From NCBI GenBank assembly GCA_963758525.1, contig CAVWVQ010000003.1, positions 4,977,156 through 5,041,155 of the forward strand: a stretch of 64,000 nt of DNA, given 5' to 3'. Below the pieces are notes generated by a model. The model ran no database searches. It was not told the DNA's origin and worked only from the letters and a program-made list of their open reading frames with translations. Below, one piece after another: positions 10,889 through 61,476 of the stretch. This DNA is from an uncultured Phycisphaerales bacterium (GTDB taxonomy: Bacteria; Planctomycetota; Phycisphaerae; Tepidisphaerales; Tepidisphaeraceae). Each line of letters opens with the position of its first letter. The first letter of the stretch is position 1. The position numbers and the translations under genes were made by a program.

Positions 10889-11105
10889 ATGGGCGATTCC
10901 TTGCCGGCGCGGTAAGCGCGAAAATAGGCAAAGCATTTAGTGCCTTTTATCCCTACTTCCACCGGCAGGAGGCTGAAACACGGGGTCTTATCGTCCTGGC
11001 CAGGAAGCCCGGGAGAAGTGACGCACGTCTCGCTCTTTTCGCTTGCAGTTTGTTGCGAAGCCCGTATTCTGCCATCGCTCCAGCACACTTCCGGAAGGGA
11101 ATTAA

Positions 11106-25565: not shown

Positions 25566-25958
25566 CCAGTCTGGAACAACCGCGGCCATCCCCGCGGCTC
25601 ACGCGATCGCGGCCCACGCTCACGAACCCGATCGTGCCAGCGCACGGGCATTGCCACGATAAAGGCGGCAAGCTGGGTGAAACCGGTGATTTGGGTGCGA
25701 ATGCGATCATCTTTCGGACTATCTAGTCAATGGCCCGATAACATTTACTTCAGAGGTGGAAGTTGCTAGCTTCGCCGGACAAACGGTGAGTGCAGTCTCG
25801 CACAATTTTCCATTTCGATCGATTCACAAGATTGGATGTGCCGCACATCCCGCAGCGACTTGCTTCTCTCTTTTGTGCATGGAGGTCGTCTCGGGGAAGC
25901 GAACGACCGGCAAATCACCGCTCTGATCCGCGATTGTCCCGGGAAGGAATTGCAAATC

Positions 25959-28900
25959 ATGGCATCCAGAAACCGCCGTAAGGCATCTTGGTCAGCGCGC
26001 ACGAGAATTCAATGTTGTTGCGAGGCCCTGGAATTCCGGCGGTTGTTGACATCGATTGTTGTGACCTCCACGGCTGACGACGGAGGGAGCGGGGAACTGC
26101 GGGCCGCTGTTGCCCAGGCCTATACAGCCGCAAAGTATGGAACTGCCGACACAATCACGTTCGATCCAAGTTTGAGCGGCCAGACGATCACGCTGACCCA
26201 GGGTTTTGTGAGACTCGGGTTGGGGGATGGCAACTTGGTACCAACCCCGGTCACCATCGACGGCGGGAATCAGATCACCGTCAGCGGTGGAGGCACGAGT
26301 CAGGTGTTCGACGTGAATTCAGGCGCTGTCGCGGTGGTCACGGGGCTGACAATTACGCGAGGCTTCGTTGACGGCACGTCCGGTCTCGCGACTGCGTCCG
26401 GCGGCGGTGCAATTTTCAACAACGGCACGCTGACGCTGACAAACAGTATCGTGTCAGGGAGCACGGCGTCCACGGCCACCGGCGGCGGTCTCTACAACGC
26501 GGGCACACTCACGGTCAACAACACGACTTTCTCGGGAAACAATGCCGACAACGGTGGCGGCGGAATCGAAAATGTCGGCACGGCGACGGTGGCCAACTCA
26601 ACATTCAGCGCAAACAGCTCATTGGGATCGGGTCTGTTTACCAGCGGCGGAGGAATCGATAATGAAAACGTGCTGAGCGTGGTGAACTCCACGTTCTATG
26701 AAAATGCGGCATATGACGGCGGCGGGATCGGCAACTTCGGCACGCTGACGGTCAGTCAATCCACGTTGAGCGGCAACTCCGCGGTTTCGACGGGCGGATC
26801 AGCCAACTCTCCTGCCGGCGGTGGAATTGCCGACTTCGGTGACTCCGCGACACTCTTGAGCACGATCGTGGCGCAGAACGGCGGAAGCGACGGCGTCATC
26901 GGGCCGGATGTCTACAGTCATTCGACATCATCGAGCACAAACAACCTGATCGGCGACGGCAGCGATTATTTCGGTGCGACCAACGGCAGCAGCGGAAACA
27001 AGGTGGGCACGGACGCAAGTCCGATCGATCCGAAGCTGGCGCCATTGGCCAATTACGGCGGTTTCACGCAAACCATGGCGCTCAAGCCCGGCAGCCCGGC
27101 AATCAACGCGGGTGGTTCGGTCACATCCCTCAGCGCTGCGGCAACGTCATCCGCGACGACGATCAACCTAGCCAACGGCGCGGCGATCGCCAGCACCAAC
27201 GGGCAATATGTCATTCAGATCGGCAGCGAGGAAATGCTCGTCACGGCAGTGTCGGATAACACGCTGACAGTCACTCGCGGATATCACGGCACCACGGCCG
27301 CTTCGCACAGCTCGGGGACAGGCGTAATTGTGCACTTCGATCAAACCGGCCGGCCGCGCCTGGGCACAGCCGATATCGGCGCGTTCGAAGTGGAAGGGAC
27401 CAGTCAGGTCGTTACGACCGCATCGGACGCGGTGAACCACACTGGTGTGTCACTGCGTGATGCGATGGCGCGAGCGGATTTCGATGCGTCCAATGGCCAA
27501 TCTGACACGATCACTTTTTCCGCGGCGCTGGCGGGCCAGACGATTACGCTGGTCCAGGGGACTTTGGTTCTGCAGGATGCAGGAAGCGGAACAACGACCA
27601 TCAACGGCGGCGGTGTGATCACGGTGGGCGGCAATCCCAATTTTGGTGTTTTCAGTGTTTCCAGTGGCGTGCATGCTTCGCTATCGGGCCTGCAGCTCAG
27701 TGGGGGAGAAAAGAATGGAGGCATCAGCGGTGGGGCAATCTACAATGACGGCACGCTCGCCGTTGCCAATTGCACATTCTCCAATGACGGGTTCTCCAAT
27801 GACGGTGGAGCGATCTACAACGACAGCGCTGGTGCGCTGACCATCACAAATTCCACGTTCTCAGGAAACTCTGCCAATGACGGCGGTGCAATTGATAACT
27901 TCGGCACGGCAACCATCGCGAACTCCACTTTCTCCTCCAACACTGCTTTTGAACACGGCGGCGCCATCGATAATGATTCGGGCACGCTGACGGTCAGCAA
28001 CTGCACCTTTTCTGGAAACCACGGCGAATACGGCGGGGCTGTTGACAACGGGGGCACGCTTTCGATCAGCAACTGTACGATCTCCGGAAATTCCGCGCAC
28101 AACCCCGGTGGTGGGGTCAGCAGCAACGGCCCTTCCCTTGTTCTGATGAATTCAATCGTCGCGCAAAACACCGACGATGGCATGGGGCCGGATATCTCTG
28201 CTGATCAGTCAGGCGGAAGCAACAATCTGATCGGCGACGGCACGGGCGACGGCGGCATCACCAACGGCACGAACGGTAATATGGTGGGCACGAGCGCCAA
28301 CCCGATCGATCCGAAGCTGGGGCCATTAGCCAACTACGGCGGGGCGACGCAGACCATGGCGCTCAAGCCCGGCAGCCCGGCAATCAACGCGGGCGGTTCG
28401 ATCACATTGCTCAGCGCGGCGGCAACTTCATCCGCGACGACGATCACCGTCGCCAACGGCGCGGCCATCGCCAGCACCAACGGGCAGTACATCATTCAGA
28501 TCGGCAGCGAGCAGATGCTCGTCACGACAGTGTCGGGTAACACGCTGACAGTCACGCGCGGATACAACGGCACGACGGCGGCATCGCACACTTCCGGAAC
28601 GGGCGTGATTCTTCCGTTCGATCAGACCGGCCTGGCGCGGGTGGGCACGCCGGATATCGGCGCCTTCGAGGCCCAAGGAACCAGCCTGGTCGTGACAACG
28701 GCCTCGGATGCGGCAAACCATACGCAAATCTCGCTGCGCGATGCGATGCAGCGGGCGGATGCTGATGCATCCAATGGCCAATCCGACACGATTACCTTTG
28801 CCGCTGCGCTGGCGGGCCAGAAGATTACCCCGGTCCAGGGAAGTTTTAACTTGCAGGATGCCGGCAGTGGAACGACGACCATCAACGGCGGTGGTGTGAT

Positions 28901-31136
28901 CACGTTAGGCGGTAATTCGCTTGCAGATGTATTCAATTTTTCCAGTGGCGTGCACGCTTTGCTAACGGGCCTCAAGATCAGCGGAGAACAAAATGGAGGC
29001 TCCAGCGGTGGCGCAATCTACAATGCCGGCACGCTCGCGGTCGCCAATTGCACATTCTCCAATAACACCTCTCAAAACAATGGCGGAGCGATCTACAGTG
29101 ATGGTGCGCTGACCGTCACAAATTCCACGTTCTCTGGAAACACTGCCTATGACGGCGGGGCAATCGACAGCGATGGGGATATAACCATCATCAGCAGCAG
29201 CTTTACCGGCAATTCGGCGGAGTTTGGCGGCGCCGTTGAAAATGGTTCAGGTGGGACCCTCGCAAACTCAAGCTTCACCAGCAACAGTGCAACTTCCGAC
29301 GGGGGCGCTGTCCATAACTGGGGCACGCTTTCGATCAGCAACAGTACGATCTCCGGAAATTCCGCGACTCGTAACGGTAATGGGATCTACAGCGGCGGCC
29401 CTTCCCTTACTCTGGTGAATTCGATCGTGGCGCAAAACACCGACGCTGGCACGGGGGCGGATATCTCGGCTTCTCAGTCAAGGGGAAACAACAATCTGAT
29501 CGGCGATGGCACGGGCGACGGCGGCATCACCAACGGCACGAACGGTAACCAGGTCGGCACGACAGCGGCCCCCATCGACCCCGGCGTAGTTTCCCAGAGT
29601 TACAACAACGGCAACAGCACGGTGCTCGCGCTCAAGTCCACCAGCCCCGCCCGCGATGCCGGCGGTGCAATCGCCTTGTTGGACGGAGCCGTCGCCAGCA
29701 CCGACACGTCAATTGCCCTTCAGGGTAACGCTGCTGGCATCGCCAGTACGCCGGCAAGCTACGTGATCAAGGTCGACAACGAGCAGATGCTCGTGACTAG
29801 CGTCGACATCGCTGGTGAACAGCTGACAGTCGTCCGCGGGTACAACGGAACAACGGCCGCGGCACACGCCGGAAGCGCGGGGATTTCCTTTGCATACGAC
29901 CAGATCGGCCAGTTGCGCGACAGCACGCCGGATATCGGCGCGTTCGAATACCAACCGTCCACCACCACGAAACTCACGAAGAGCACCTCGACCGCCATCA
30001 AGTTTGGGCAAAGCGTGACGTTCACGGCGACGATTGCCGCGGTGGGAACCAACGCCAACACCCCTTCCGGCAGCGTCACCTTCCAGGACGGAACAACCCT
30101 GCTCGGAACCGGCGCCGTCAGCGGCGGCGTTGCCACCTTGACGACCACCACGATTCCCACTGGCAGCAATTCGATCGAGGCCGTCTACAGCGGCGACTCC
30201 AACTTCACCACCAGCACGTCCAGCGCCCTGACGCAAACGGTCAGCAAGGCTTCGACAACCAGCGCACTGACCAAAAACACCACCGGCGCCACCAAGTTCG
30301 GCCAGAGCGTGACGTTCACGGCAAAGCTTGCCGCCGTCAGCCCCGGCGCCGGCACACCGACCGGCACCGTCACGTTCAAAGACGGCTCGACCACGCTTGG
30401 CACAGCCACGCTCAGCAGCGGCGTCGCGAAGTTCACAACCACCGCGCTCCCCGTCGCCAGCAACTCCATCACTGCCGTCTATGGTGGCGACGCCAACTTC
30501 AACACGAGCACGTCCAGCGCGTTGACGCAAACGGTCAGCAAGGCTTCGACGACCACCGCCCTGACCAAAAACACCACCGGCGCCACCAAGTTTGGCCAGA
30601 GCGTGACGTTCACGGCAAAGCTTGCCGCCGTCAGCCCCGGCGCCGGTACACCGACCGGCACCGTGACGTTCAAGAATGGCTCGACCACGCTTGGCACAGC
30701 CACGCTCGGCAGCGGCGTAGCGAAGTTCACAACCACGTCGCTCCCGGTCGCCAGCAACTCCATCACCGCCGTTTATGGTGGCGACGCCGAGTTCAACACG
30801 AGCACTTCCGGCGCGTTGACCCAGACCGTCAGCAAGGCCTCAACGACCACCAAGCTGACCAAGAACACCACCACCGCCATCCATTCGGGCCAGAGCGTGA
30901 CGTTCACGGCCACACTCGCCGCAGTGAGTCCGGCGCGCGGGACGCCCACCGGCATCGTCACGTTCTATGACAACGGCAGCACCATGCTCGGCACCGGCAC
31001 GCTCAGCGGCGGGATCGCGACGTTCACCACCACGACGCTGCCCGTCGGCAGCAACTCGATCACGGCTGCCTATGGAGGGGACACGGACTTCACGACGAGC
31101 ACGTCGAGCGCGATTTCGCAGACCGTTACGTCGTAG
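25959..31136 (+). CDS. Large secreted surface protein, paralogue H (three head modules, four Ig-like repeats); intact
   Basis: ATG 25959 follows GGAAGGA. MASRNRRK...EALEFRRLLT leader. Uninterrupted frame with three modules each ending DIGAFE. Ends SQTVTS*. Confidence 0.9.
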   Translation: MASRNRRKASWSARTRIQCCCEALEFRRLLTSIVVTSTADDGGSGELRAAVAQAYTAAKYGTADTITFDPSLSGQTITLTQGFVRLGLGDGNLVPTPVTIDGGNQITVSGGGTSQVFDVNSGAVAVVTGLTITRGFVDGTSGLATASGGGAIFNNGTLTLTNSIVSGSTASTATGGGLYNAGTLTVNNTTFSGNNADNGGGGIENVGTATVANSTFSANSSLGSGLFTSGGGIDNENVLSVVNSTFYENAAYDGGGIGNFGTLTVSQSTLSGNSAVSTGGSANSPAGGGIADFGDSATLLSTIVAQNGGSDGVIGPDVYSHSTSSSTNNLIGDGSDYFGATNGSSGNKVGTDASPIDPKLAPLANYGGFTQTMALKPGSPAINAGGSVTSLSAAATSSATTINLANGAAIASTNGQYVIQIGSEEMLVTAVSDNTLTVTRGYHGTTAASHSSGTGVIVHFDQTGRPRLGTADIGAFEVEGTSQVVTTASDAVNHTGVSLRDAMARADFDASNGQSDTITFSAALAGQTITLVQGTLVLQDAGSGTTTINGGGVITVGGNPNFGVFSVSSGVHASLSGLQLSGGEKNGGISGGAIYNDGTLAVANCTFSNDGFSNDGGAIYNDSAGALTITNSTFSGNSANDGGAIDNFGTATIANSTFSSNTAFEHGGAIDNDSGTLTVSNCTFSGNHGEYGGAVDNGGTLSISNCTISGNSAHNPGGGVSSNGPSLVLMNSIVAQNTDDGMGPDISADQSGGSNNLIGDGTGDGGITNGTNGNMVGTSANPIDPKLGPLANYGGATQTMALKPGSPAINAGGSITLLSAAATSSATTITVANGAAIASTNGQYIIQIGSEQMLVTTVSGNTLTVTRGYNGTTAASHTSGTGVILPFDQTGLARVGTPDIGAFEAQGTSLVVTTASDAANHTQISLRDAMQRADADASNGQSDTITFAAALAGQKITPVQGSFNLQDAGSGTTTINGGGVITLGGNSLADVFNFSSGVHALLTGLKISGEQNGGSSGGAIYNAGTLAVANCTFSNNTSQNNGGAIYSDGALTVTNSTFSGNTAYDGGAIDSDGDITIISSSFTGNSAEFGGAVENGSGGTLANSSFTSNSATSDGGAVHNWGTLSISNSTISGNSATRNGNGIYSGGPSLTLVNSIVAQNTDAGTGADISASQSRGNNNLIGDGTGDGGITNGTNGNQVGTTAAPIDPGVVSQSYNNGNSTVLALKSTSPARDAGGAIALLDGAVASTDTSIALQGNAAGIASTPASYVIKVDNEQMLVTSVDIAGEQLTVVRGYNGTTAAAHAGSAGISFAYDQIGQLRDSTPDIGAFEYQPSTTTKLTKSTSTAIKFGQSVTFTATIAAVGTNANTPSGSVTFQDGTTLLGTGAVSGGVATLTTTTIPTGSNSIEAVYSGDSNFTTSTSSALTQTVSKASTTSALTKNTTGATKFGQSVTFTAKLAAVSPGAGTPTGTVTFKDGSTTLGTATLSSGVAKFTTTALPVASNSITAVYGGDANFNTSTSSALTQTVSKASTTTALTKNTTGATKFGQSVTFTAKLAAVSPGAGTPTGTVTFKNGSTTLGTATLGSGVAKFTTTSLPVASNSITAVYGGDAEFNTSTSGALTQTVSKASTTTKLTKNTTTAIHSGQSVTFTATLAAVSPARGTPTGIVTFYDNGSTMLGTGTLSGGIATFTTTTLPVGSNSITAAYGGDTDFTTSTSSAISQTVTS
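30231..30818 (+). repeat. Near-identical 294-bp tandem duplication encoding two Ig-like domains
   Basis: ACGCAAACGGTCAGCAAGGCTTCGAC starts at 30231 and again at 30525, and the intervening sequence repeats with few substitutions. Confidence 0.9.
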
Positions 31137-31327: not shown

Positions 31328-32082
31328 ATGAATCTCTCCTGCTCGCGATTCGTCAGGAACTTTTGGGCTGCAAGTGCGTCCATGCTCATGGCTGCGCGCT
31401 GGGCTGCGCAAGCAACTCGGCCGCTCCCAAGGCGCAGGGCTGTCCGACGACGGTGCCCGCCAACACGATTGCGGCGTCGGCAAGCTCGGTGCGCGGGCTG
31501 GGAGAATTGGATACGCCCTCAATGGCGGCGGGGGCTGGAGCTTCGAAAGAAGGTGCGGTCAATGAGCGCGCTCTGACGGGCGGCGCGAGCGCACGTGGAT
31601 TTGACTTTGGCGACAGTGGCGGCGGGGGCGCCAACGGCGGACCGTTGAGCTTCGAACAACTCGGGCAGTTGCTGCAAAGTCTTGGCAGCGCTCCGCAGGT
31701 TCATGCCGGAATGTATGTCTACCAGATCAAGGAAGAGTCGGGGCTCACCTATCCCCTGGTCATCAGCTTGAGCCAGGATCAGCGGGCAGTTTATTTTCTG
31801 GTTCCGTTGGTCCCCGTCGATCCGCAGGGCTGGGCCAATCAGGAGTCGTTGTTCAAACTTCTGGCGGGAAACTCGGTTATCTGCCCGGCATCGTTTGGGA
31901 TCGTCGGCCAGAAGCTGTTCCTGCTTTTGGGCGTTGCCAACATGAATGTGAGCGCGGAGAGCCTGAAGCTCGATATCTCCTATATGTTCGAGACAGTTCA
32001 TAAGACCAAGCCGCTGTGGGTTCCGTGGATGGGGACCGGCGGCGGAGGTGGGAATAGCGGCGGCGGCAACCCGTTCCAATAA
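31328..32082 (+). CDS. Lipoprotein with CesT/YbjN-like (type III chaperone fold) domain, copy 1; one frameshift in the signal peptide
   Basis: GGAGG RBS precedes ATG 31328. Restoring one base near 31395 gives MNLSCSRFVRNFWAASASMLMAAALG|C, matching the next gene's signal. Domain LSFEQLGQLL..LG...YPLVISLSQD...LFKLLAGN. Ends GGGNPFQ. Confidence 0.7.
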
Positions 32083-32175
32083 TGGTGACGCCGCGATCGA
32101 TTCGATGATTGGCGCTCTCTGTTACGTACAACTAATAAGTGAAGAACTCCTGATACCCCATTTGAAAGGGCAGTC

Positions 32176-32937
32176 ATGAAGACCAATTTTGCACCGGGAT
32201 TGAGAACCGTTGTTCTGGCGGCGTCGTCCATGCTGGCGGCATCCGCGGGATGCTCCAGCAACTGCGGCACCAATGAGAAGCCCGTCGCCGCTGCGGCGGC
32301 CGCGGTTTCAATTCCCGAAACGCCCCGCGGAACCGCGGCGCAGTCGAAGTCGGTGGTCAGCACCAGCGCGCGCGATCTGGCGGATTCGCAGCCGGACAGC
32401 GTAGTGGCGGGTAAGGGCGGAACACGCGACCTGGATCTTGGGGGCGGCGGGGGAGGCGGCGGTAACCAGAGCGGGCAGTTGAGCTACCAGGCGCTGGGTG
32501 AGGCGCTGCACCAACTGGGTGTGGCGGCGGAAGACAAGCAAACCTTCTATAGCGTCAAGGTCAAAGCCACCACGCCGGACAACATCACGTGGTCATACCC
32601 CGTCACCGTCTCGCTGTCGCGAGACTCGTCGATCGTCTGGGTTTCGTGCAATCTGGTTCAAGTCGGGGCGAACGGAACTCCCGCTCCGCAGACACTCATC
32701 AGCCTGCTTGCCGCCAACTTCCAGATGGGAACCACGTTTTTTTCCGTCGATACTCAACCGATGCTGATGCTGCAGCACCCCTTTGAAAATGCCGGCATCA
32801 CGCCAGAGGTGTTGGGCGCGCATCTGAAGCTGTTCTTCACCAATCTCAAGGCCAGCGAGCCAGTCTATAAGACGCTGACCGGAACCGCCGGCGAGGGCGG
32901 CGGCGGTGGTGGTGGCGGTGGAAACCCGTTCCAATAA
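32176..32937 (+). CDS. Lipoprotein with CesT/YbjN-like domain, copy 2
   Basis: Lipobox SAG|C, low-complexity linker, then LSYQALGEAL..LG...YPVTVSLSRD...LISLLAAN...NAGITPEVL. Clearly paralogous to the upstream gene. Ends GGGGNPFQ. Confidence 0.8.
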   Translation: MKTNFAPGLRTVVLAASSMLAASAGCSSNCGTNEKPVAAAAAAVSIPETPRGTAAQSKSVVSTSARDLADSQPDSVVAGKGGTRDLDLGGGGGGGGNQSGQLSYQALGEALHQLGVAAEDKQTFYSVKVKATTPDNITWSYPVTVSLSRDSSIVWVSCNLVQVGANGTPAPQTLISLLAANFQMGTTFFSVDTQPMLMLQHPFENAGITPEVLGAHLKLFFTNLKASEPVYKTLTGTAGEGGGGGGGGGNPFQ

Positions 32938-33005
32938 ACTGACAGACGATTGTGTTAGTGTTCCTGGGGCAGGAACTCTGACGTTCAAAAAGAGAGAGGA
33001 CTTCT

Positions 33006-35477
33006 ATGCGTCACCTTTCCCCAGGTGTGTGTCTGCGCATTGCTATCATCGGCCTGGCGTCACTTGGCGCCTGCATCGCGGGCTGCGCTGGTCACAACAG
33101 CGCGGACGACGCGATTCTGTCCGAATCGCCCGGCAGGGATATCGTGGCGCCCGAGCCCAGCCGCGGGCTTGAACCGCCCGCGAAGCTCGCCCCCGCGCTG
33201 CAGCGATTGTCGTCGGCTTCTGAAGCCTCGCGTGACCTGGCGCCCGCGGATGGCGGATCGGGAAGTCTTCCCCCGGTCAACGAGGTCGGCTATCCCGTTG
33301 CCGGCACGAAAGACGTTTTTGATGTCGCGATTCACGTCAAGTCGGACGTCGATGTGAAGGCAGTCGCGGCCGCCGGTGCGGATATCCAGGTGCGCCTCGG
33401 CAATATTTTGTACGCCACGGTTCATGCGCGCGATCTGTCGCAGGTGGCGGCGGTCGATGGGGTGGAGCGTATCGCGCCGATGCCGGGCAGCACGATCCCC
33501 AGGCCGCCGGCAACTCCCGTTCAGACGGCGCCGCGCGGCGAAGGGACGCGAGGCCTGGAGCCTGGCACCGGCGAAGCGGCGCAGTTCGATCATCACGGAC
33601 TGACCGGGAAGGGGACCATTGTCGGAATCATCGATACGGGAATCGACTGGCATCACCCGGACTTTATGAGTCCAGACGGAACCACGTCGCGCATTCTTTA
33701 TTTGTGGGACGTTTCCGACAATTCGTGGGAGGAATCGAACCATACCGTTGGCTCTGAACCGCCCATGAGCGCAAATGGCAAGCCGCTGGGAACTCTGTAT
33801 ACGAATGATCAGATTAACGCAGCCCTGAAGGGGCAAATGAAGATCGCCAGGACCGACCATGTGGGCCACGGCACCGCGTGCGCGAGCACCGCCGCTGGAA
33901 ACGATCTTGGGGTCGCGCCCGAAGCGGATCTGGTGATTGTGAACAGCTATCGCGACGATCCCGATCACCCGTTCAATGACGGGTTTCATGGGGTTCAGGG
34001 CGCTTGGTGGATCTCGCAGGTTGCCGCGCAGCGGCATGAGCCGTGCGTCATCAGTCTCAGTTACGGCGGTCATATGGGTCCGCACGACGGCACGGGTGAG
34101 CAGGAAGCCGGGTTCAACGGGGTGGTCAAGGGTGGCGATGCGCCGGGCGTGGTGATTTGCGCGTCAGCCGGGAACGAAGGGGAGGCGATCATGCACGCGC
34201 ACGGCCGCTTCGGCCCGCGCCGTCCGACGGAACTCAGGGGCGGGATCGGCACGATCACTCAATTATTCATCCAGCAGGAGACTCCCCTGGAGGCAGTGTT
34301 CGATTCGCAGGATGACTGGATGCTGCGGATCGTCGGATTGGACAAATTTCTCGTTGGCTCCGACGGAAAACCGGCCCGCGTGGACTTCGCCAAGGCCCAG
34401 GGAAATGACAAGGACGATCTCGATCTGCACATCATCGGCTCGGATAACGTGACAGAAGCCGATGGGCAGAAAATCACCTCGCTGAGGAAAGACAAGAATA
34501 TCCAGGCCAGCACGCTGCCGGGCGGGAGCGATGTTCTTCTCATTGACCTGCCTCCGGGCTCTTACCTGGTGGTGGCGGCCGGCGCGTCTGAAAAGGTGAC
34601 TCACGGAGTCTACGACTTCTACGTGCCGGACAATTCCAGCGGAACCTTTGGCACCGGCGGGGATCACAAAATGGTGATCGGAAACCCCGGAGACGCCGAC
34701 AGCATCATTACTGTCGGCTCGTATGATTTCCGCAACCAGTGGGACAACGCCAGCGGCGCGATGACCCGTTCCGATCAGGTGGACCTGGGAAATATTTCGC
34801 CCTACTCGAGCCCCGGCTTTCGGCGCGACGGGGCGGTGAAGCCTGACATCGCCAGTCCCGGGCAATACACGATTTCCGCGATGGCCGATGGATCATTAAT
34901 GTCGAAGGACGGGGCGGCGTTCGTGACCAAAGACGGGAAGCACCTTGCATGGGCCGGTACCAGCGCGTCGTGTCCTTACACCGCCGGCGTCATCGCGCTG
35001 ATGCTGGAGAAAAATCCGCAGCTCACTGCCAATCAGGTGAAGCAGATCCTTCATGACACAGCGGACCATGACTTCGCGGTGACCGGCGCGGTTCCCAACC
35101 CCGAGTGGGGCTACGGAAAGTTGAATCCCGAGAAAGCGCTGGAGAAGGTGACGGCGGGCGCGGCTGCGCCTCCTGTCGCGCCGCCATCTCCGGTTAATCC
35201 GTCGCCGACGCCGCTTCTCAAATCGCCGTTCGCCGGCACATTCAAGGGAGAGGGTCTCACGTTGGTGTTGACGCCTACAGCCGACAAAACCTTCGGCGGA
35301 ACATTGCTCAAGGGGGACACCACCTTCCCCCTTGACGCGCGGCTGGTCGCGTCGCTGCTAGAGGGAACCGTGCACGGCCAGGCGGGCGACTTCACGTTCA
35401 CCGCCACTTTGGATGGCGATAAACTGATGCTGAACGCCAATGGGAAGGTCTTTGAGCTGACGCGGCAGGCGCCGTAA
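33006..35477 (+). CDS. Lipoprotein subtilisin-like serine protease (S8) with an internal insertion domain and a C-terminal beta-rich domain
   Basis: Lipobox IAG|C. Catalytic motifs IIDTGID, GHGTACAS, SAGNEG (oxyanion Asn) and GTSASCP, plus KPDIASPG and WGYGKLN. Pro-rich linker before the C-terminal domain. Confidence 0.93.
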   Translation: MRHLSPGVCLRIAIIGLASLGACIAGCAGHNSADDAILSESPGRDIVAPEPSRGLEPPAKLAPALQRLSSASEASRDLAPADGGSGSLPPVNEVGYPVAGTKDVFDVAIHVKSDVDVKAVAAAGADIQVRLGNILYATVHARDLSQVAAVDGVERIAPMPGSTIPRPPATPVQTAPRGEGTRGLEPGTGEAAQFDHHGLTGKGTIVGIIDTGIDWHHPDFMSPDGTTSRILYLWDVSDNSWEESNHTVGSEPPMSANGKPLGTLYTNDQINAALKGQMKIARTDHVGHGTACASTAAGNDLGVAPEADLVIVNSYRDDPDHPFNDGFHGVQGAWWISQVAAQRHEPCVISLSYGGHMGPHDGTGEQEAGFNGVVKGGDAPGVVICASAGNEGEAIMHAHGRFGPRRPTELRGGIGTITQLFIQQETPLEAVFDSQDDWMLRIVGLDKFLVGSDGKPARVDFAKAQGNDKDDLDLHIIGSDNVTEADGQKITSLRKDKNIQASTLPGGSDVLLIDLPPGSYLVVAAGASEKVTHGVYDFYVPDNSSGTFGTGGDHKMVIGNPGDADSIITVGSYDFRNQWDNASGAMTRSDQVDLGNISPYSSPGFRRDGAVKPDIASPGQYTISAMADGSLMSKDGAAFVTKDGKHLAWAGTSASCPYTAGVIALMLEKNPQLTANQVKQILHDTADHDFAVTGAVPNPEWGYGKLNPEKALEKVTAGAAAPPVAPPSPVNPSPTPLLKSPFAGTFKGEGLTLVLTPTADKTFGGTLLKGDTTFPLDARLVASLLEGTVHGQAGDFTFTATLDGDKLMLNANGKVFELTRQAP

Positions 35478-35507
35478 TCGGTGCGCAGCCGTACTGATGA
35501 GGTTGCG

Positions 35508-37667
35508 ATGACACAACGAACACGAATTTGGCACCCACGGTTGATTCCCGCCACCAGCTGCGTTGGGTCGGTTGTCATATTTCTCCTGGCTTCCTCTGCG
35601 ATGCTTCGAGCGGATGACTCGCCCGCCGGAACGCGCATTGATTTCCCCACGAGCGACTCGCTTCCCTGGGATAAATTCGGAGTCTTCATCGGCATCGACA
35701 GCTATTCAAAGCTGCCGCCGGAGAATCAGCTTCACGGTTGCGTGGCGGATGCCAACGGCATGAAGGAAGCGTTCGTCCGTCTTGGCGTGCTTCGATACGC
35801 AATGATCACCAATGGAGAGGCAAGCCGTCAGGGGATCGGGCGGGTGCTGAGCGAACTGGTCGATCAGGTGAAGGCGGCCACGACCAGGACAAAGGAGCCG
35901 ATCACGGTCGTGATCACCTATGCCGGGCACGGATGCCGCCTCAAGCGGCTGGCGACGGAGGAGGAACCGAACAGTCTTGATTCCTCGTGGGTGGCGGCGG
36001 ACAGCGACTTTGCCGGAACCCACGACGTTCGCGGATATGAGCTTCAGGAAATCCACACCCAGCTGGCCAAACTCGGGGCGCAGGTGCTGATCATCTCCGA
36101 CTCGTGTCACTCCGGCAGCAGCTATCGCGGCACCGACGAGCTGAGGCAACGGACGTTGCCCATGGCGTCGCGCGGCGGCTTCGCATCCCGCCTCGGTCCG
36201 CAGGAAAACCTTTTTCCGCAGTTCGTCATCGATACAGCGGCAGCGGGAGCAAAGGCATCGGGGAGCTCCGGCGGCCCGCTGCCTGGATTTGTCTTTTACT
36301 CGGCCTGCGGCGACCAGCAGTGCGCCTATGAGACCGAGGATGATCACGGCCGATCGTGCGGAAGACTGTCGATGGTGATGCGCGTTCTGCTGGCGAACAT
36401 GGGCGATCAGACGACTTACCAGGAATTGGCCGCAAAGATTGCGGCGGAGTTCGCGGCGCGCTGGCCGGGCGACGTGAAGCAATCCCCCGAGTTTCATAGC
36501 GCCTACGGCAAAGCCGATGAGCGTTTTTTCCGCGGCGGATTTCCGCCGCCCCACGCCAGCATCGTTCCAAAGAGCATGCACGACGGAATGGTCAAGCTGA
36601 CGATGGGCAATGTTCTTGGAGTTGCCGAGGGATCTCGCTTCACGTTCTATAAGGACCTGGACGATCTGGCCCTGCACAAGAATCCGATCGCGACCGGCGA
36701 GGCGACGGCGGTCGATCCTGTTACATGCGATGTGCAACTCGAGAACGGCGCGAGCGTGCCGGTCAGCGCCTGCGCTGCGATGACGACTGTGACGATCGCG
36801 GACTTTGTGGTTGCAACCGAAGGAGACGTGCCGGAATTTATCCTGGCGAAGCTTCGTGAGCTGGATCATAACCATCAGATCGTGTTGACCGGGCAGCTCG
36901 CGAAATGTTCGGCCGTGCTTCGCTACGACGCAACAAGCAAAACGATCAACCTCTATTCTCCGACGGCATTGCCCCCCTTGAACCAATCGGCGTCGGACGT
37001 TCCCACGTTGCGTCCGCCGATTCCATGCCGCGGCCCCGACGACGCCGAGTTGGTTGCGTCCAACTTGCTGTACGCGGCAAGGATTCAGCGGATGATGACG
37101 CTGGACCACCAGGACGACGACTTACTGAAAGCCGAGATCGCCACTTCCAGCGGAGCCGTCAGAAGCGAGAATGGCGTGCGCCGGCTCAGGGAAAACCAGC
37201 GATTTGCCATTCGTCTGACGAACAAGTCGGAAGACACCAGGCTCTATGTGACGCTGTTGACGCTGGATCGAACCGGCAATCTGCAGATCCTTTATCCGCC
37301 GCCGGGCGCTGACGCAAGGCCGATCGAGCCCGGCAAGACACGGGATGTGACGTTCAATGCAACGATCGACGATCCCTCGAAGCTGAAGCCCGGCGACGCT
37401 GAAATATCGGTGCTCAAGGTGCTCGCAACAGATCAGCCGATGGATCTTTCCGCGCTGGCCGTCCCTCCGCAGACCGGCGCGGGAAACGTCGCCGGCACGC
37501 GCGGCGTCGGCGGGACGGACAATGCGGTCTTCGATCTCATGCGCGATGTCCTGCACGGCGGTGAACTGGCGAGCCAGGTTTCCAGAGGAGTTCCCCGAGC
37601 CGTCATTTCCCAGCAGTGGGCCACGGATAATCTGATTTTCGGGGTGGATCAGGCTGAATCGAAATAA
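35508..37667 (+). CDS. Exported caspase-family (C14, meta/orthocaspase-like) protease with a C-terminal DUF4384-like domain
   Basis: GAGG RBS before ATG 35508. Signal-like VVIFLLASSAMLRA|DD. Motifs IGIDSY...LHGCVADA, catalytic YAGHG and DSCHSG, p10-like SACGDQQCAYE and QSPEF. C-terminal FAIRLTN...LYVTLLTLDRTGNLQILYP. Confidence 0.9.
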   Translation: MTQRTRIWHPRLIPATSCVGSVVIFLLASSAMLRADDSPAGTRIDFPTSDSLPWDKFGVFIGIDSYSKLPPENQLHGCVADANGMKEAFVRLGVLRYAMITNGEASRQGIGRVLSELVDQVKAATTRTKEPITVVITYAGHGCRLKRLATEEEPNSLDSSWVAADSDFAGTHDVRGYELQEIHTQLAKLGAQVLIISDSCHSGSSYRGTDELRQRTLPMASRGGFASRLGPQENLFPQFVIDTAAAGAKASGSSGGPLPGFVFYSACGDQQCAYETEDDHGRSCGRLSMVMRVLLANMGDQTTYQELAAKIAAEFAARWPGDVKQSPEFHSAYGKADERFFRGGFPPPHASIVPKSMHDGMVKLTMGNVLGVAEGSRFTFYKDLDDLALHKNPIATGEATAVDPVTCDVQLENGASVPVSACAAMTTVTIADFVVATEGDVPEFILAKLRELDHNHQIVLTGQLAKCSAVLRYDATSKTINLYSPTALPPLNQSASDVPTLRPPIPCRGPDDAELVASNLLYAARIQRMMTLDHQDDDLLKAEIATSSGAVRSENGVRRLRENQRFAIRLTNKSEDTRLYVTLLTLDRTGNLQILYPPPGADARPIEPGKTRDVTFNATIDDPSKLKPGDAEISVLKVLATDQPMDLSALAVPPQTGAGNVAGTRGVGGTDNAVFDLMRDVLHGGELASQVSRGVPRAVISQQWATDNLIFGVDQAESK

Positions 37668-39315: not shown

Positions 39316-40775
39316 ATGTTCTTCCCCCAACGCCGACTGAGGTCGGCGATTCTCGCCGGGACGATGAGTTCCGTTCTCGGCATGAGCGCAGCGGTGAGTT
39401 CCGCGGCAGACTCGGCGGCGCAGGAGATGCAGGCGCAACTCAAAGCCCTGCAGGCCAAAGTCGATCAGATGCAGGCAAAACAGGACGCATTGGACAAGGC
39501 CAATGCCCAGTCCACCGCCAATCGCGTGCATGACGACGCGGTCAAGCACGACAGCCAGATGCTCGACATCGGCGGGGTGACGGCCGGATACGCCGACAAG
39601 CGTTTCTTCATCGGAAGCGATGACGGCAACTTCGTGCTCAAGCCATGGATTCACATCCAGGCTCGTTACAGCCTCAACTACCGTGAAGATGAGAAGCACA
39701 ATCACACGGATTCAGACACCGAAGACGGGTTCGAATTGCGTCGCGCCCGCCTTGGGTTCGACGGCAATCTCTTCGGAAAAGATTTCACCTACTTCATCAA
39801 TTGGGCGAGCAACCGCGAAAATAGCACGCTCACCGTCAAGAACACCGCGGGCGCGACCGTCGGCACGACAACCGGGCCGACCGGCGGCCTGCCCGTGCTC
39901 GAAGAAGCGTGGATGAAATATCACTTTCACGACTCGCCGTACTACGTGAAAGTCGGACAGATGCACGATCCGCTGGATCACGAAAACATCGTCGGCTCCA
40001 AGTATCGCGCCCCGAAGCATCGCTGCAGGGCGACATCTTCGGAAACACCGATACCTTCACGCAGGCATTAACCTTCATTTACGACGACAAGGGTCCGATC
40101 CGCTTTGAAGGCGGCATCACTGACGGTATCCGAGCCGCCAACACCAACTTCCAGGATTATCCCAATAACGGCATCGCCTATGACGGCGGACTTGCCGCTC
40201 GCGTCGAATACAAGGTGATGGGCAACTGGAAAGACTACGACCAGCTCACTTCCTACGGCGACAAGAAAGATCTGCTGGTCCTGGGTTCGGGGATCGATTA
40301 CTCCTACTCCGGCAGCCGCTACCAACTGTCACACACGCTGGACGCCCAGTATGCGAGCCCCAGCGGTTGGTTCGCGTATGCCTGCTACTTCGGACGCTAC
40401 ACTGATAATCAGCAGGGAATTCCCAATACCAGCGGCGTGTCTGCGTCGTTTGGCGGTTCGCCTGGAGATCTCGGGCAGGACACCTACGAGCCCTCCATCC
40501 TCCTCCAGGTCGCATACCTGATCGATCAGAAGTTTGAGCCGTTCGCCCGCTTCGAATACCTGCACCTTGCAGGAACGCCCAAAGGGAGTCAGAACAACGT
40601 CACCGATATCTCGGTGGGTTTCAACTACTATTTTTACGGGCATAACCTCAAGTTCACCGGTCTGCTGACCTACCTGCCCAGCGGCATTCCGATCAACGAT
40701 GACGGATCGGATATTCTCATCAGCAACGATAAGGGAGAGTTCATCGCGATCTCGCAACTGCAATTGCTGCTGTAG
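39316..40775 (+). CDS. Outer-membrane porin (OprO/OprP-like), paralogue 1; one frameshift
   Basis: Signal peptide, N-terminal coiled coil, DGFELRRARLGFDGN and KVGQ..DP, then VGFNYYFYGHNLKFT and terminal QLQLLL. Frameshift near 40010. Confidence 0.82.
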
Positions 40776-42850: not shown

Positions 42851-43177
42851 CAATCAATTCAGAAGACTTTCCGCGCGGCCTGGGAAAAAGGTAACACTCA
42901 AGGAATGACCGACACTCGTGAAGCCCTTTTGCGAGACCAAGAAGCCGTATCAAAGGCTCTTGACGGAACACATCAAGGAGTTGAAAAGCCGGGAAGGTCC
43001 TCAATTGTTAACCGATCGTGAAAGGCGTGCCGAAATGCGTCAGTCCCAGCTCCTTCTCGATTGCTTTTGCAACATCTTGGCGGCTATATGCTGAACAATC
43101 GGGCGCCCGACTGAGAGGTGCGGCGGCTGAGAATTCATCCGCCCGCGCGCCAAACGGTATCACGAGGAGCCGGTTTA

Positions 43178-46100
43178 ATGGGTCTTATCAAGTTCGTGCT
43201 GCGGCGCCCATACACGGTCGCCGCCATGATCATCCTGGTTTGTCTGCTCGGGATCGGTGCGGCCCTGCGCATGCCGACCGACATCTTCCCCGAGATCAAT
43301 ATTCCCGTTGTATGCGTCGTGTGGACTTACAACGGCATGAGCGCGGACGAAATGCAGAACCGAATCGTCGCTCTGCATGAGCGTCAACTCGCGTCGCTGG
43401 TGGACGACATCGAAAGGATCGAGGCCAACAGTTACCAGGGAGTCGGTGTCGTCAAGGTCTACCTTCACGAAGGCGCGGACGTCAGTCGTGCGGTTTCGCA
43501 GTTGGCAAGCAGCTCGCTGGTTGTGCTCAAGTACATGCCTCGCAACATCACGCCGCCGTTGATTCTGCGGTATGGGGCAACCGATGTTCCGATCATCCAA
43601 TTAAGCGTGTCGAGCAGCTCGCTATCTGACACCCGACTCAACGATCTCGGGCAGAACATCATCCGGCCCGATCTGGCGGTGGTGCGCGGAGCTTCAGTTC
43701 CCTACCCGTATGGCGGCAAGCCGCGCGTCATCATGGTCGACCTCAACCAGCAGGCGCTGCAGGCGCGCGGCCTTTCGCCAGTCGACGTGAGCGAGGCGCT
43801 GCAGCGGCAGAACGTCATTCTTCCTTCAGGGGATGTGAAGCTGGGCGACCGCGACTACGCCGTCTCGATGAACAACAGTCCCAACGTCATTGACGCGGTC
43901 AACCAGTTCCCGATCAAAGAAGTTGGCGGGAAGCTGGTCTTCATTCAGGATGTGGCCCACGTCCATGACGGGTACCAGGTCCAGACCAATTCGGTAACCG
44001 TGGGTGGTTTGCCCGGCAGCTTAATGATGGTGCGCAAGACCGGCGGAGTTTCGACCCTCGCAGTCGTCAAGGGTGTCCGCGCGGCAATTCCCGAACTCAA
44101 GAAGCTCCTGCCCGCCGGCGTCAGCGTCAAAGCGATCTTCGACCAGTCCATTTTCGTGAAGGCGGCGCTCAACGGCGTGCTCATGGGCGGGACGATTGCC
44201 GCAGTCCTTACTGGGCTGATGATTCTCTTGTTTCTGGGCGACTGGCGGCTGACGCTGATCATTCTCGCGTCGATTCCCCTCTCGATCGTCGCGGCGCTGC
44301 TCATCATGTATTGCGTGGGGCAGACGCTCAACACCATGACGCTGGGCGGATTTGCCCTGGCCGTCGGCATCCTCGTGGACAACGCAACCGTCGTCATCGA
44401 AAACATCGATCGCCATCTTCACGGTGGCGAGGAACTTGAGGATGCCATCGTTAGCGGCGGGTCGGAAATCATGACGCCGACGATACTCTCGACGCTCGCC
44501 ATCTGCATCGTCTTCATCCCGGTCTTCCTGCTGCAGGGGACGGCACATTACCTCTTTTCCCCGTTGTCGCTGTCAGTCTGCACGGCTCTGGTCGCGAGCC
44601 TGGCGCTGTCATTTACTCTCGTGCCGGTCATGTTTAAGTTTCTCATGCGCCGGGCCGTGGAGAAGCGAGCGCATTCCAACTGGCAGCGCAAAGTGAAGGA
44701 GCGTGCGCCGCATCGGGCCAACCGTCGCACGTGGTGGAGCAGGCCGTTTGCAGCAATCCACTATGGTTTCGAAAAAAGCTTCAACAGCTTTCGCAGGAAA
44801 TACCGCAACGTGCTGGCATGGGCCGTCGATCGGCCGGCCCTGACCAGCGTCTTCTTTGTCGCTCTGATGGTAATTTCCCTCTTGCTCTTCCCGATCCTGG
44901 GAATGGATTTCTTTCCGCAGGTCGACGCCGGCCAGATGCGCCTCCATGTCCGGCGCCGCCGGGCACGCGCCTCGAGAAAACGCAGGAGGATTTTGCGAGA
45001 GTCGAATCGAGTATTCGGCAGATCGTCGGCGACAACCAGGTTGACGTCGTCCTGGACAACATCGGGCTTCCGTACAGCGGCATCAACATCGCGCTGAGCG
45101 ATGCCGCCACTGTCGGTCCAATGGACGGCGAGATTCTGATCTCGCTCAAGGAGAAGCACACTCCGACCGCCGGCCACGTCGCGGATCTGCGCCGCGAGTT
45201 GCCCAAGCGCTTCCCGGAAATGCAGTTCTTTTTCCAGCCGGCCGACATCGTGAACCAGGTGCTGAACTTCGGTCAGCCCGCTCCGATCGACATTCGCGTG
45301 ACCGGTCCCAAAAACGATCAGGCCTATGCTCTGGCCAGCAAGATCACCCGCGACCTCAAGGCTGTTCCGGGCGTAGTCGACGCTCACGTCTTTCAGGTGC
45401 CCGACGCGCCTTCAATGAGGATCGACGTCGACCGCGCGTTCGCGCAATACCTGGACCTCAGCCAGCAGAACGCAGCCAACAGCCTGCTGGTGGCGCTGAA
45501 TTCCAGCGCCAGACGGCTCCAAACTTCTGGCTCAACTCGCGCAACAGCGTGAGCTATCCGCTGGTGGTGCAGACGCCGACCTATCGCATCCGGTCCATGG
45601 AGGATTTGCGGACGCTGCCCCTGCCGACGCCCAACGGGCAGGGTCAACTCCTCATGAACATCGCCCAGTTCAGCCGCGGCAGAGTTCCGATGATCATGTC
45701 GCAGTTGAACATCCGGCCGGTGTTCGATGTGAATGCCGACGTTCAAGGCCGTGACCTCAAGAGCGCGGCCGACGCAATCCAGAACGTGCTCGACAAGGAC
45801 CGGCCCACCGATGCATCGGCGATGAAAGTGACTCTCGCCGGCCAGGTGGAGACGATGCGGGAGAGCTTCGACGGCCTCTTCTCGGGGATGGCGCTGGCGG
45901 TGGTACTGGTCTTCCTTCTGATGGTGATGTACTTCCAGAGCTGGCTCGATCCGTTGATCGTGCTGATGGCGGTGCCGTTCGCGTTGGCGGGGGTATGCTG
46001 GATGCTCTATTTGACAAACACTCACATCAGCGTGCCCGCCCTTATGGGAACGCTGATGTGCATCGGGCTCACCACCGCCAACAGCATTCTGGTGGTAACG

Positions 46101-46394
46101 TTCGCCAATCAGCGGATGGGGGCGGGAGACAGCCCGCTGACGGCTGCGGTCGCGGCGGGGTACACTCGTTTGCGCCCGGTGCTCATGACTGCCGGCGCCA
46201 TGATCCTCGGAATGATTCCAATGGCTCTGGGTGTCGGTGAAGGAGGGGAGCAGAACGCTCCGCTTGCCCGCGCGGTCATCGGAGGACTGCTGTTCGCGAC
46301 GTTCGCCACGCTGATTTTTGTGCCGGCTATGTACCGGCTCATGCGGCGACCCAATGTGCCCGGTCCGGAGGAGACGACTCGTGCAATCGCCTGA
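43178..46394 (+). CDS. RND efflux permease (AcrB/AcrD/AcrF family); two frameshifts
   Basis: DIFPEINIPVV, LAVGILVDNATVVIENI, DFFPQVDAGQ and TRLRPVLMTA. Pieces 43118..45097, 44731..45552 and 45549..46394. Confidence 0.92.
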
Positions 46395-57900: not shown

Positions 57901-58100
57901 TCCTCAATCGCCGAGGCGGTGAGCTTCGGGTTCAGCCGCGCCACCGCTGCCGCGAGGCGGGCTTTCAACGCCGCCACGCGATAGTCCGCCCGCTCAGCCG
58001 CGAGGGCCTCCGGCGCAATGTCCGGGCCGGGGGAATACGACCAGCCGGTCTCCTGAAACCAGGTGAGGGCGAGTTGTTCGAGGTGGTCTTCGGTGATCAT
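54969..58100 (-). CDS. hsdR: Type I restriction endonuclease subunit R
   Basis: PD..(E)LK nuclease motif [45 protein letters not shown] and QAIARVNR. Intact, 1043 aa. Confidence 0.97.
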
Positions 58101-58127
58101 AAACTCACGAATTGTATAGCGGCCACA

Positions 58128-60736: not shown

Positions 60737-61476
60737 CTCCCACCCCCACAAGACGCTTTTTCTTGTCAGCCTTGAGCTTCCTTGCAGCTGCTTGCCTTAA
60801 CTTGTAATCACCCAATCGCTGTTCGGCCTCAAACAAAGGAAATATTGGCCGTAGTACCACACAAGGGTCTTTGAGAAGTTCTAAGTTGGTAGACAATCCA
60901 GCCCATAGAATGGTTGCACCGGTTATAGAGAACGCGTTCGCGCATTGGATTCGAGAAGGAGTCGGAACTTTGTTCATTGATTGTTGAAATGCCGAAATAG
61001 CTAACGCCGCGTCACCTGCGTGGGAAAGGGGATACGCTTTCTCAGAGCCACTAACGAAAGCCTCCCAAACGAACAGATTGCAATTTCCACTGATGAAATC
61101 CTTCCACTGCGTAGTCGCAGCGGCATCGGGAGTCAGCCGTTTTATTTCGCGGAGGACCCAAGCCAATGATTGAGTGCCTGTGGCTAGAACAGTGGCACCA
61201 GCTGCGGCCGTGAACGGTCGGTTGCCAGTCGCCTCCTCACACTCGCCGTCACGTGCGCAGGCCCAGCAGTGCCGGATCGTCTTCGACAGGAATGAACAAT
61301 GGACACTCGTAACCAAGGGCTACCGGATTTCCGCAGGCCAAATCGCCGGAGATCGCTTGTGCTAGGGACAGAGCATCCTGCGCTGACACGGTAACGTCCC
61401 GTGAAGAGACCCAGTGGAAATTTCCCTGGGATGCAGATCCTGCGTCCGCCACGTAGATCGTAATCTCATTCACCAT
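60726..61476 (-). CDS. Hypothetical protein, possible RNase H-fold (DUF429-like) nuclease, between hsdM and hsdS; one frameshift
   Basis: ORFs 61249..61491 and 60726..61316 join near 61260. Motifs IYVADAGS..GNFHW, VALGYECPLFIP, VWEAFVS and HAGDAALA. Overlaps both neighbours by 11 nt. Confidence 0.6.

Follow-up and report, generated by a model that had tools for sequence, protein, structure and literature searches.

What an exported bacterial caspase might cut is the question raised by a four-gene operon in the genome of an uncultured Phycisphaerales bacterium of the family Tepidisphaeraceae (assembly GCA_963758525.1, contig CAVWVQ010000003.1). The operon lies in a stretch of 64,000 nucleotides, positions 4,977,156 to 5,041,155 of the contig's forward strand, hereafter the window; coordinates refer to it unless another locus is named. 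Caspase homologues exported by bacteria have long been known without substrates (PMC3501461). Read from the translated region, the operon consists of four co-oriented genes on the + strand, encoding two lipoproteins, a subtilase of family S8 and a caspase-like protease of family C14. A short motif recurs in the linkers of these proteins, and the comparisons below suggest that the caspase probably cleaves tags of the form [R/K]-[G/D] in the disordered linkers of its partners, in a protease cascade that would operate outside the cytoplasm. Because distant relatives retain the tag, and unrelated proteins encoded beside related caspases also carry it, the caspase, which is predicted to be exported, likely cuts at it and thereby releases and switches on its partners. 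The operon offers named candidate substrates with exact sites, and a rule from which further substrates in other phyla can be predicted.

A recurrent motif in the operon proteins

A preliminary description of the operon, made from its letters alone, had proposed that a recurrent R-[G/D]-hydrophobic motif is the cleavage code of an Arg-specific caspase that activates itself, unmasks the subtilase and releases chaperone-fold domains from their lipid anchors. All motifs it listed are present, and 11/11 of the coordinates it gave mark the residue preceding the Arg. The corresponding Arg codons are at 31492 and 31594; 32371 and 32425; 33135, 33162, 33231 and 33549; and 36171, 37500 and 37584 for lipoprotein 1, lipoprotein 2, the subtilase and the caspase, respectively. 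ERAL, PRGT and YRGT are likewise present, with Arg codons at 31567, 32326 and 36126. After the six Arg residues in the linkers of both lipoproteins come G, A, G, G, D and D, in line with what had been noted, and the final linker sites before the folded domains read ARGFDFGDSGGGG and TRDLDLGGGGG.

The motif is far more frequent in these linkers than in comparable sequence of the same genome. In low-complexity segments, R[GD][LFIV] accounts for 8/18 Arg residues of the operon and for 142/6,042 (∼2.4%) elsewhere (binomial P 3e-9, with the motif picked post hoc and a background of 5,169 gene calls of our own). Other low-complexity thresholds gave 10/27 versus 293/11,771 and 6/10 versus 28/1,554. 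Within the 80 residues past the lipobox, the motif occurs at 7/10 Arg, compared with 10/258 in 66 lipoprotein-like proteins, which were picked by regular expression and include some false picks. As a control for the post hoc choice, the best-scoring motif of this form was picked separately for each of 2,740 four-gene stretches. In this ranking the operon came 25th of 2,740 and had the sole Arg motif among the top 25; eight of the nine higher-ranking regions inspected encode large Gly/Thr/Asn-rich repeat-type proteins, and one is unexplained. The enrichment is real and strong, though not unique in the genome, and since the motif was also chosen after the fact, the case rests on conservation.

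These data also bear on whether the motif merely arises from GC-rich, low-complexity sequence in the linkers together with common descent. The post hoc choice of motif, the 24 stretches that outscore the operon with motifs of their own, and the kinship of the close homologues would all suit this explanation. It is nonetheless largely refuted by the shuffle and outgroup controls given below, by the occurrence of the tag in at least five unrelated protein families, and by KG versions that replace RG, and is scarcely credible.

Conservation in the subtilase and the lipoproteins

Homologues were recovered from genome contigs by an alignment-based search (a single-sequence scan yielded nothing); loci, genomes and proteins of the comparison sets are labelled L, G and P. 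Close homologues of the operon belong to Tepidisphaeraceae, Tepidisphaerales or Phycisphaerales. The subtilase (33006..35477, 823 aa) is a lipoprotein with a lipobox at Cys27, a prodomain, a CspB-like catalytic domain with an insertion, and a C-terminal beta domain (residues 739-822). It matches PF00082 (E 3e-36, split match), its best PDB profile match is CspB (4i0w, E 1e-47), and its catalytic triad D210/H288/S653 is invariant in 44 sequences. It shares with CspB the intact triad and the insertion inside the catalytic domain; its NCBIfam CspBA score of 90 bits, against a cut-off of 1250, places it outside the curated Csp family.

The main test of conservation concerned the boundary between prodomain and catalytic domain, where the preliminary description had located TRGL (T-R182-G-L, 33546..33557). 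R[GD] is present there in 11/11 close homologues. In the wider subfamily (∼36-46% identity), the junction linker contains RG in 50/54 proteins, compared with 12.0 in shuffles, while outgroup S8 proteins have it in 3/33, compared with 4.4 in shuffles. The count covers the 35 residues before the catalytic domain, and 2/56 subfamily proteins, whose junction was not located, and 19/52 outgroup proteins were dropped. In the aligned junction column, R is found in 33 and G in 32 of 39 sequences, with neighbouring positions at no more than 15/39. This subfamily has a Pro-rich RG linker in place of the short junction of ordinary subtilases. It includes proteins from Pyrinomonadaceae, Chthonomonadaceae, Obscuribacterales and one metagenome-assembled genome of the cyanobacterial phylum; most of the wider proteins (P0187-P0242) lack genomic context, which was derived from genome searches only.

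Two further sites flank the first prodomain helix. S-R53-G-L (33159..33170) lies ahead of it, with R in 33 and G in 31 of 39 rows of the wider family and RG at most 14 residues before the helix in 43/43 proteins. S-R76-D-L (33228..33239) lies past it, with R in 25 and G in 24 of 39 and RG or KG in 28/43; the wider family reads R-G here, and both counts out of 43 refer to proteins in which the prodomain helix was found. Longer homologues have an additional C-terminal domain, and two further tags separate it precisely from the beta domain, at the point where the window protein ends. In a phylogenetic tree, the tag-bearing S8 proteins form one clade, with K replacing R in two separate branches and D replacing G in the clade of the window protein. 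The 50/54 therefore go back to a single origin that was maintained along long branches and do not count as 50 events. The exchange of R for K falls at homologous sites, as a protease accepting a basic P1 residue would allow. The C-terminal beta domain of the subtilase (window 35220-35474) is also fused to chaperone-fold domains in P0045, P0050 and P0067, and it occurs in other near-operon proteins of L109, L110 and L114.

The homologues also refine the motif. The R-[G/D] core proposed initially is borne out, whereas its hydrophobic third residue is specific to this clade: the third residue at the wider-family S8 sites is mainly A, G or E, and K-G also occurs. Judged from these alignments, the portable code is [R/K]-[G/D], and the hydrophobic residue is local. 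Most tags are kept where the linkers otherwise diverge; ERAL and GRDI are not. ERAL, which reads EHSL, EKSL or EKTL in homologues, and GRDI, which is not kept in S8 homologues, were dropped as sites. ARDL at residue 142 of the subtilase was not counted as a tag because it lies within the folded prodomain, even though it is conserved in close homologues, and TRDV/MRDV of the caspase was not counted either.

The two lipoproteins are paralogues with 32% identity and have no match to any Pfam or NCBIfam model. Lipoprotein 1 (31328..32082) has a signal peptide (ATG 31328), a lipobox (Cys codon 31405), a disordered linker, a CesT/YbjN (TY-Chap) domain and a Gly-rich NPFQ tail. In this assembly, a one-base frameshift near 31393 (window 31328-31407) puts its signal peptide out of frame with the lipobox, in contrast to 3/3 aligned homologues; because other window genes are also split, an assembly error is plausible. 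Two DNA sequencing runs yielded short pieces only, none of which spanned the frameshift. Lipoprotein 2 (32176..32937, 253 aa) has a lipobox at Cys26, a disordered linker (residues 27-100) and a CesT/YbjN-fold domain (residues 101-235). Its AlphaFold confidence (predicted local distance difference test, pLDDT) is ∼50 at residues 1-100 and mostly >90 at 101-230. Foldseek matches it to CesT, SicP and YbjN (E 4e-5 to 1e-4), Pfam CesT is matched in 10/60 of its homologues, and the domain has the alpha-beta3-alpha-beta2-alpha chaperone fold of the CesT/YbjN (TY-Chap) type.

The linker tags of both lipoproteins are conserved. In lipoprotein 1, V-R-G-L (31489..31500) corresponds to VR[GD][LI] in 7/7 aligned lipoprotein-1 types, and A-R-G-F (31591..31602), directly ahead of the folded domain, to RGF in 6/7 and RSF in 1/7. 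In lipoprotein 2, A-R-D-L (32368..32379) lies within a longer conserved block (R in 22, D in 23 and L in 23 of 24 homologues), and T-R-D-L (32422..32433) precedes a poly-Gly spacer (R and D each in 23 of 24 in the aligned column). P-R-G-T (32323..32334) is a weaker site, with Arg in 18/24 homologues and mainly S or A as the next residue. In five operon loci, which encode one to four lipoproteins each, 13/13 lipoproteins are tagged. Among chaperone-fold homologues of other types, a tag precedes the domain in 4/125 (6.6 expected), compared with 17/17 of the operon type, a set that is partly circular because it was chosen by homology of the N-terminal region, which includes the linker. A two-domain chaperone-fold lipoprotein with SRDI, ERGI and SRGV (L112:6641-7891) is encoded on a separate contig from the caspase operon of its genome and is a candidate substrate in trans.

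The preliminary description had the caspase release the chaperone-fold domains of the lipoproteins; the conserved blocks of lipoprotein 2, however, exceed a cleavage tag in length, so the lipoproteins may act as decoys or inhibitors and not as effectors set free by a cut. A precedent comes from the type III-B CRISPR system of Haliangium ochraceum, in which SAVED-CHAT activates the broad-specific caspase PCaspase and PCi inhibits it (bioRxiv 2023.06.23.546230). The tag could serve throughout for docking or as a pseudo-substrate, remaining uncut while it binds to the active site of the caspase, to the DUF4384-like domain of that enzyme or to the chaperone groove, with the lipoproteins acting as membrane-tethered inhibitors or adaptors like PCi. 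The long blocks around the lipoprotein 2 sites suit such a role, as do the peptide-binding-chaperone fold of the lipoproteins, the existence of an S8 protein fused to the non-catalytic C-terminal part of the caspase (in G1115, below) and the behaviour of PCi, which is both cleaved by PCaspase and inhibitory to it. Yet the wider S8 family conserves the RG dipeptide only, with its neighbours at 15/39 or less, R and K interchange, and the sites fall exactly where cutting would free an anchor, a prodomain or a domain. Docking without cleavage is considered unlikely.

The caspase, its gene neighbours and other candidate proteases

The preferred reading, cleavage by the operon caspase, requires a suitable enzyme. 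The caspase-like protease (35508..37667, 719 aa from the ATG at 35508) has a signal-peptide-like N-terminus, a caspase domain, a middle domain and a DUF4384-like C-terminal domain. It matches PF00656 (E 4.5e-15; 56.4 bits against a cut-off of 21.4) and, weakly, PF14326 (E 0.068); across all four operon proteins, Pfam and NCBIfam returned only C14, this weak DUF4384 match and S8. The dyad H141/C200 is invariant in 32 sequences, and the fold is of the C14B type. Metacaspases are the closest relatives in sequence and fold, with AtMC4 as a Foldseek match (E 1e-9). Three acidic residues stand out: D81, which is invariant, D198 and E275. D198 aligns with D137 of AtMC4, and E275 aligns with D352 in a weak second segment; in AtMC4, D137 and D352 are part of the pocket that holds Lys225. 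The S1 pocket of the caspase is predicted to be acidic and of the Arg/Lys type. The label Arg-specific consequently holds in part: a basic preference fits the pocket, but the R-G-[AGE] and K-G variants of the wider family make Arg/Lys-specific, and not strictly Arg-specific, the better description.

The caspase itself carries the motif. The linker past the catalytic Cys (36123..36179) contains R207 (in YRGT), R215 and R222 (in SRGG); these three Arg are invariant in 15 close homologues, R207 in 32 sequences, and pLDDT is <50 over residues 202-229. Of YRGT beside the catalytic Cys, the Arg is kept family-wide in these caspases, and the rest of the motif is not. The other two tags, T-R665-G-V (37497..37508) and S-R693-G-V (37581..37592), lie in two loops of the DUF4384-like domain with pLDDT <50 over residues 656-670 and 685-699; R and G of the latter are invariant in 15 sequences. 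In the AlphaFold model, each of the four tag regions of the caspase is a loop of low confidence.

The genomic distribution links the tagged subtilase to the caspase. An S8 gene lies directly upstream of the caspase in seven of the nine close caspase loci analysed; among the nine, the contig of L033 is too short, L036 has a lipoprotein in place of S8, and two loci, L024 and L031, are nearly the same in appearance. The count excludes L025, a fragment of 2 kb. Across 141 genomes of the order, the caspase occurs in 8 and the S8 protein in 6, all of them among the 8. In Acidobacteriota, the phylum of the L052 genome (Acidobacteriaceae), eight loci encode the S8 subfamily and five of these have, within two genes, a C14 whose N-terminus resembles a signal peptide. 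The other three are a contig that ends in the gene, a fused S8 (G1115) and a locus with CHAT only (G1130). Two weaker outgroup S8 loci have neither the tag (0/2) nor C14 (0/2). No member of the S8 subfamily turned up in 161 genomes from the phylum to which G543 belongs, in the 5 genomes that are the source of distant caspase loci, or in 250 other genomes sampled from the window's own phylum.

In G1115, an S8 protein of the tagged subfamily is fused to the non-catalytic middle and DUF4384 domains of the caspase (L147:7586-10975), and a caspase is encoded elsewhere in the genome. In G1130, the S8 gene (L151:13380-15596) adjoins a TPR-CHAT gene and an insertion-sequence-like element, and no C14 of this type was found in the genome; in this single case, RG or KG is missing at two of the three sites.

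The tag is not confined to subtilases and chaperone-fold lipoproteins. In L029 and L081, where related caspases have no S8 alongside, a trypsin carries SRGI directly ahead of its domain, and small proteins carry SRGI or ARGV between helical and beta domains. Small secreted proteins rich in KG/RG are encoded beside related caspases in L131, L136 and L149, and in the acidobacterial loci a similar beta domain follows KG/RG-rich linkers. Small secreted proteins combining an RG/KG linker with the shared beta domain map to L131:9547-10056, L136:6793-7380, L149:9943-10434 and L029:9190-9936 and 18175-18837; for the small KG protein, Atlas returned unnamed clusters only. Near other caspases, RG or TRS stands right behind the anchor of small membrane-anchored proteins, lipoproteins and one OmpA-like protein (L056:14597-14992, L058:5616-6041, L066:6426-8309 and 10497-11438, L046:10943-12647).

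A second group of proteases competes for the role of the cutter. The window's genome contains four CHAT matches, the nearest ∼500 kb from the operon. One region (G000:C3:4496800-4517200) combines a gene resembling extracytoplasmic function (ECF) sigma factors, a membrane kinase, three matches to TPR-CHAT and a chaperone-fold gene that lacks the tag, and genes similar to this module flank the caspase operon in L034 and L036. The membrane kinase has a conserved RSRDP in its ectodomain. That the caspase activates itself, as first stated, is accordingly too narrow a claim, since TPR-CHAT proteases beside most loci could trigger the caspase or make the cuts themselves.

A TPR-CHAT protease of the adjacent ECF-sigma/kinase module might even read the tag in all partners, the caspase included, in place of C14. 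TPR-CHAT genes within or close to L029, L034 and L036 and to the loci from Acidobacteriota would fit, together with the four matches in the window's genome, the CHAT gene adjoining S8 in a G1130 genome where no C14 was found, and the cleavage through which SAVED-CHAT activates PCaspase. On the other hand, the nearest CHAT genes here are ∼500 kb away and the chaperone-fold gene beside them is untagged; CHAT loop motifs carry a small, not a hydrophobic, third residue; the G1130 subtilase lacks two of the three sites; and the loops of the C14 protease itself (TRGV, SRGV) match the tag of its partners. This makes a CHAT protease a rather improbable reader of the tag.

The operon subtilase could itself be Arg-specific and, in the manner of kexin/furin or the lantibiotic leader peptidases, mature at R182 on its own and process the other proteins. 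Its triad is intact, and subtilases, CspB among them, normally autoprocess at the prodomain junction. However, the tag also occurs in caspase operons without S8 at the locus (L029, L081), and no S8 was found in G496, a genome that is 81% complete. Moreover, Gly occupies the position that we take to correspond to subtilisin Gly166, where furin has Asp. Processing of the operon by its own subtilase is thus very unlikely.

A possible envelope cascade and related systems

With the caspase as the probable cutter, a three-step scheme can be proposed, which as a whole is more likely than not. The caspase would be a zymogen that its Arg-bearing linker (R207/R215/R222) keeps blocked until a cut there, made by the caspase itself or first by a TPR-CHAT protease, activates it; envelope damage or attack would be the most plausible trigger. 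Cuts at R53 and R76 would then free the subtilase from its lipid anchor, and a cut at R182 would separate its prodomain from the catalytic domain, so that the Pro-rich RG junction linker would put subtilase activation under caspase control. Finally, cuts in the lipoproteins would shed peptide-binding-chaperone domains of ∼17 kDa, which would bind unfolded chains or cleavage products; the lipoproteins may additionally damp the caspase as competing substrates. The calculated products would be a 17.4 kDa domain of lipoprotein 2 beginning with D85 and subtilase fragments of 10.7 kDa (residues 77-182) and 67.3 kDa (from G183 onwards). The likely purpose would be a fast, irreversible envelope stress or defence response. 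Relative to the scheme first proposed, the enrichment, the conservation, the junction position, the linkage to the caspase and the fit of the pocket stand, whereas exclusive Arg specificity, self-activation and effector release do not stand as worded.

Several described cascades share parts of this design. LcCaspase of Lysobacter capsici (Evans et al. 2025) cleaves and activates its neighbour LcHydrolase at two putative sites, with R-G motifs conserved in 161 homologues (PMC12642450). The likeness, a conserved R-G motif in a co-encoded partner, is limited to the motif, and R-D is frequent here. The LcCaspase module acts as an effector of cell death and is linked to proteases fused to sensors, and the paper mentions neither "signal peptide" nor "periplasm" (PMC12642450). 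In the window's operon, by contrast, every part has an export signal, a subtilase and lipoproteins of chaperone fold take the place of the partner, and the tag is repeated in four proteins. Pfam and NCBIfam detected no sensor fusion (beta-transducin, STAND) and no alpha/beta-hydrolase, MBL, Pepco or EACC1 death effector as partner, the partner fold being CesT-like.

YabG of Clostridioides difficile is an Arg-specific His-Cys protease, proposed for clan CD, that processes CspBA and preproSleC at SRQS, and it cut positionally once its site was deleted (PMC12445089, PMC6464247). The CspB prodomain remains bound and blocks the active site (PMC3567191), and an outside cut would therefore be useful. 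As in the YabG/Csp system, a Csp-type subtilase would here be processed at a shared short motif, and CspB is the nearest profile match of the window subtilase. YabG, in contrast, is not a C14 protease, cuts between CspB and CspA and not at the prodomain junction, and acts in spore formation, without lipoproteins or chaperone folds in the accounts available. The window subtilase differs from Csp proteins in its lipoprotein signal and its Tepidisphaeraceae relatives, outside a clostridial spore context.

The SAVED-CHAT/PCaspase system offers a third parallel. It is a two-tier clan CD cascade, as the operon's may be, with a small co-encoded substrate and inhibitor, and has a sigma factor and a kinase in its vicinity. 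This system responds to CRISPR and cA3 and leads to abortive infection, whereas the operon has exported parts and a subtilase as its downstream enzyme. Pfam detected no SAVED or cas domains in the four operon proteins, and no genome-wide search was aimed at them. The operon would work like the LcCaspase, YabG and SAVED-CHAT cascades but, on context, belongs to none of them.

Characterized type III secretion chaperones are cytoplasmic. Unlike them, the operon lipoproteins bear a lipobox and a tagged linker, occur as one to four tandem paralogues and are encoded with S8 and caspase genes. The fold of both lipoprotein domains is that of the CesT/SicP/YbjN chaperones of the TY-Chap superfamily (PMC9503650). 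The caspase resembles AtMC4 (6W8R/6W8S) and MaOC1 in its acidic pocket, self-inhibition by a basic linker residue and autoprocessing, all predicted here (bioRxiv 2020.03.09.983940, PMC5756287), autoprocessing being documented for MaOC1 (PMC5756287); it differs from both in its signal peptide, DUF4384-like domain and tagged operon partners. Caspase-like enzymes are not always basic-specific, as the gasdermin-associated protease of Runella cuts after Leu (bioRxiv 2021.06.07.447441). Searches of a mostly non-subscription literature showed no paper that describes an exported C14 together with chaperone-fold lipoproteins and a CspB-like S8, nor one on this shared tag, although supplementary neighbourhood tables could list such operons.

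A number of observations weigh against cleavage of the tag by the caspase. The tagged subtilases form one clade, so that the junction RG has a single origin, and the 17/17 operon-type lipoproteins, besides their partly circular selection, are known from proteins without genomic context. The conserved blocks of lipoprotein 2 extend well past P2-P2' and would equally fit a binding motif. Within the caspase, pocket residue Ser84 of AtMC4 is replaced by Ala. Asp after the scissile Arg is without precedent in the systems compared, whose accessible descriptions give only R-G, R-Q and R-S. Because YabG can cut positionally and PCaspase is broad-specific, tags of this kind are not necessarily read as a strict code. 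Most related loci are accompanied by exported TPR-CHAT proteases whose catalytic motifs look intact and which bear R-[GDN]-small loops of their own. For the G1115 subtilase, no catalytic C14 was detected on the contig of 13 kb, and the G1130 subtilase keeps one RG site while adjoining TPR-CHAT with no C14 found. Finally, no tag-rich neighbours of the strict pattern were seen in the more distant planctomycete loci L057, L060-L062, L067, L068 and L070, which encode caspases. In the GC-rich loci L056, L065 and L069, the gene caller took wrong frames, and these neighbourhoods are under-read.

If cleavage of the tag is accepted, bacterial caspase cascades would extend from cytoplasmic phage defence to the cell envelope, with a caspase gating a serine protease in a complement- or clotting-like logic and a role for secreted type III chaperone folds. 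Tentatively, the comparison leads to a wider proposal that could hold but is by no means assured: exported C14-DUF4384 caspases of several phyla may run a complement-like extracytoplasmic cascade through a portable [R/K]-[G/D] tag, which unrelated proteins (CspB-like subtilases, trypsins, chaperone-fold lipoproteins and small beta-domain proteins) would gain on joining the operon, one subtilase subfamily having traded self-maturation for caspase gating. A portable tag and caspase gating would make caspase substrates readable straight from sequence.

The surroundings of the operon add some minor observations. A search for sigma-70 promoters found 0 (1.8 expected), and one for terminators found 5 candidates (6.0 expected), none convincing. 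Directly upstream (window 1771-31136) lies a tandem array of large Gly/Thr/Asn-rich proteins, several of them fragmented, the last of which (25836-31136) has beta-helix and Ig-like domains. Further downstream, a porin-like gene (39316-40775) and an RND-like gene (43118-46394), both named by sequence appearance only, are split across frames, which suggests indel errors in the assembly. Type I restriction-modification-like genes, judged from N-terminal sequence only, occupy 54969-63169.

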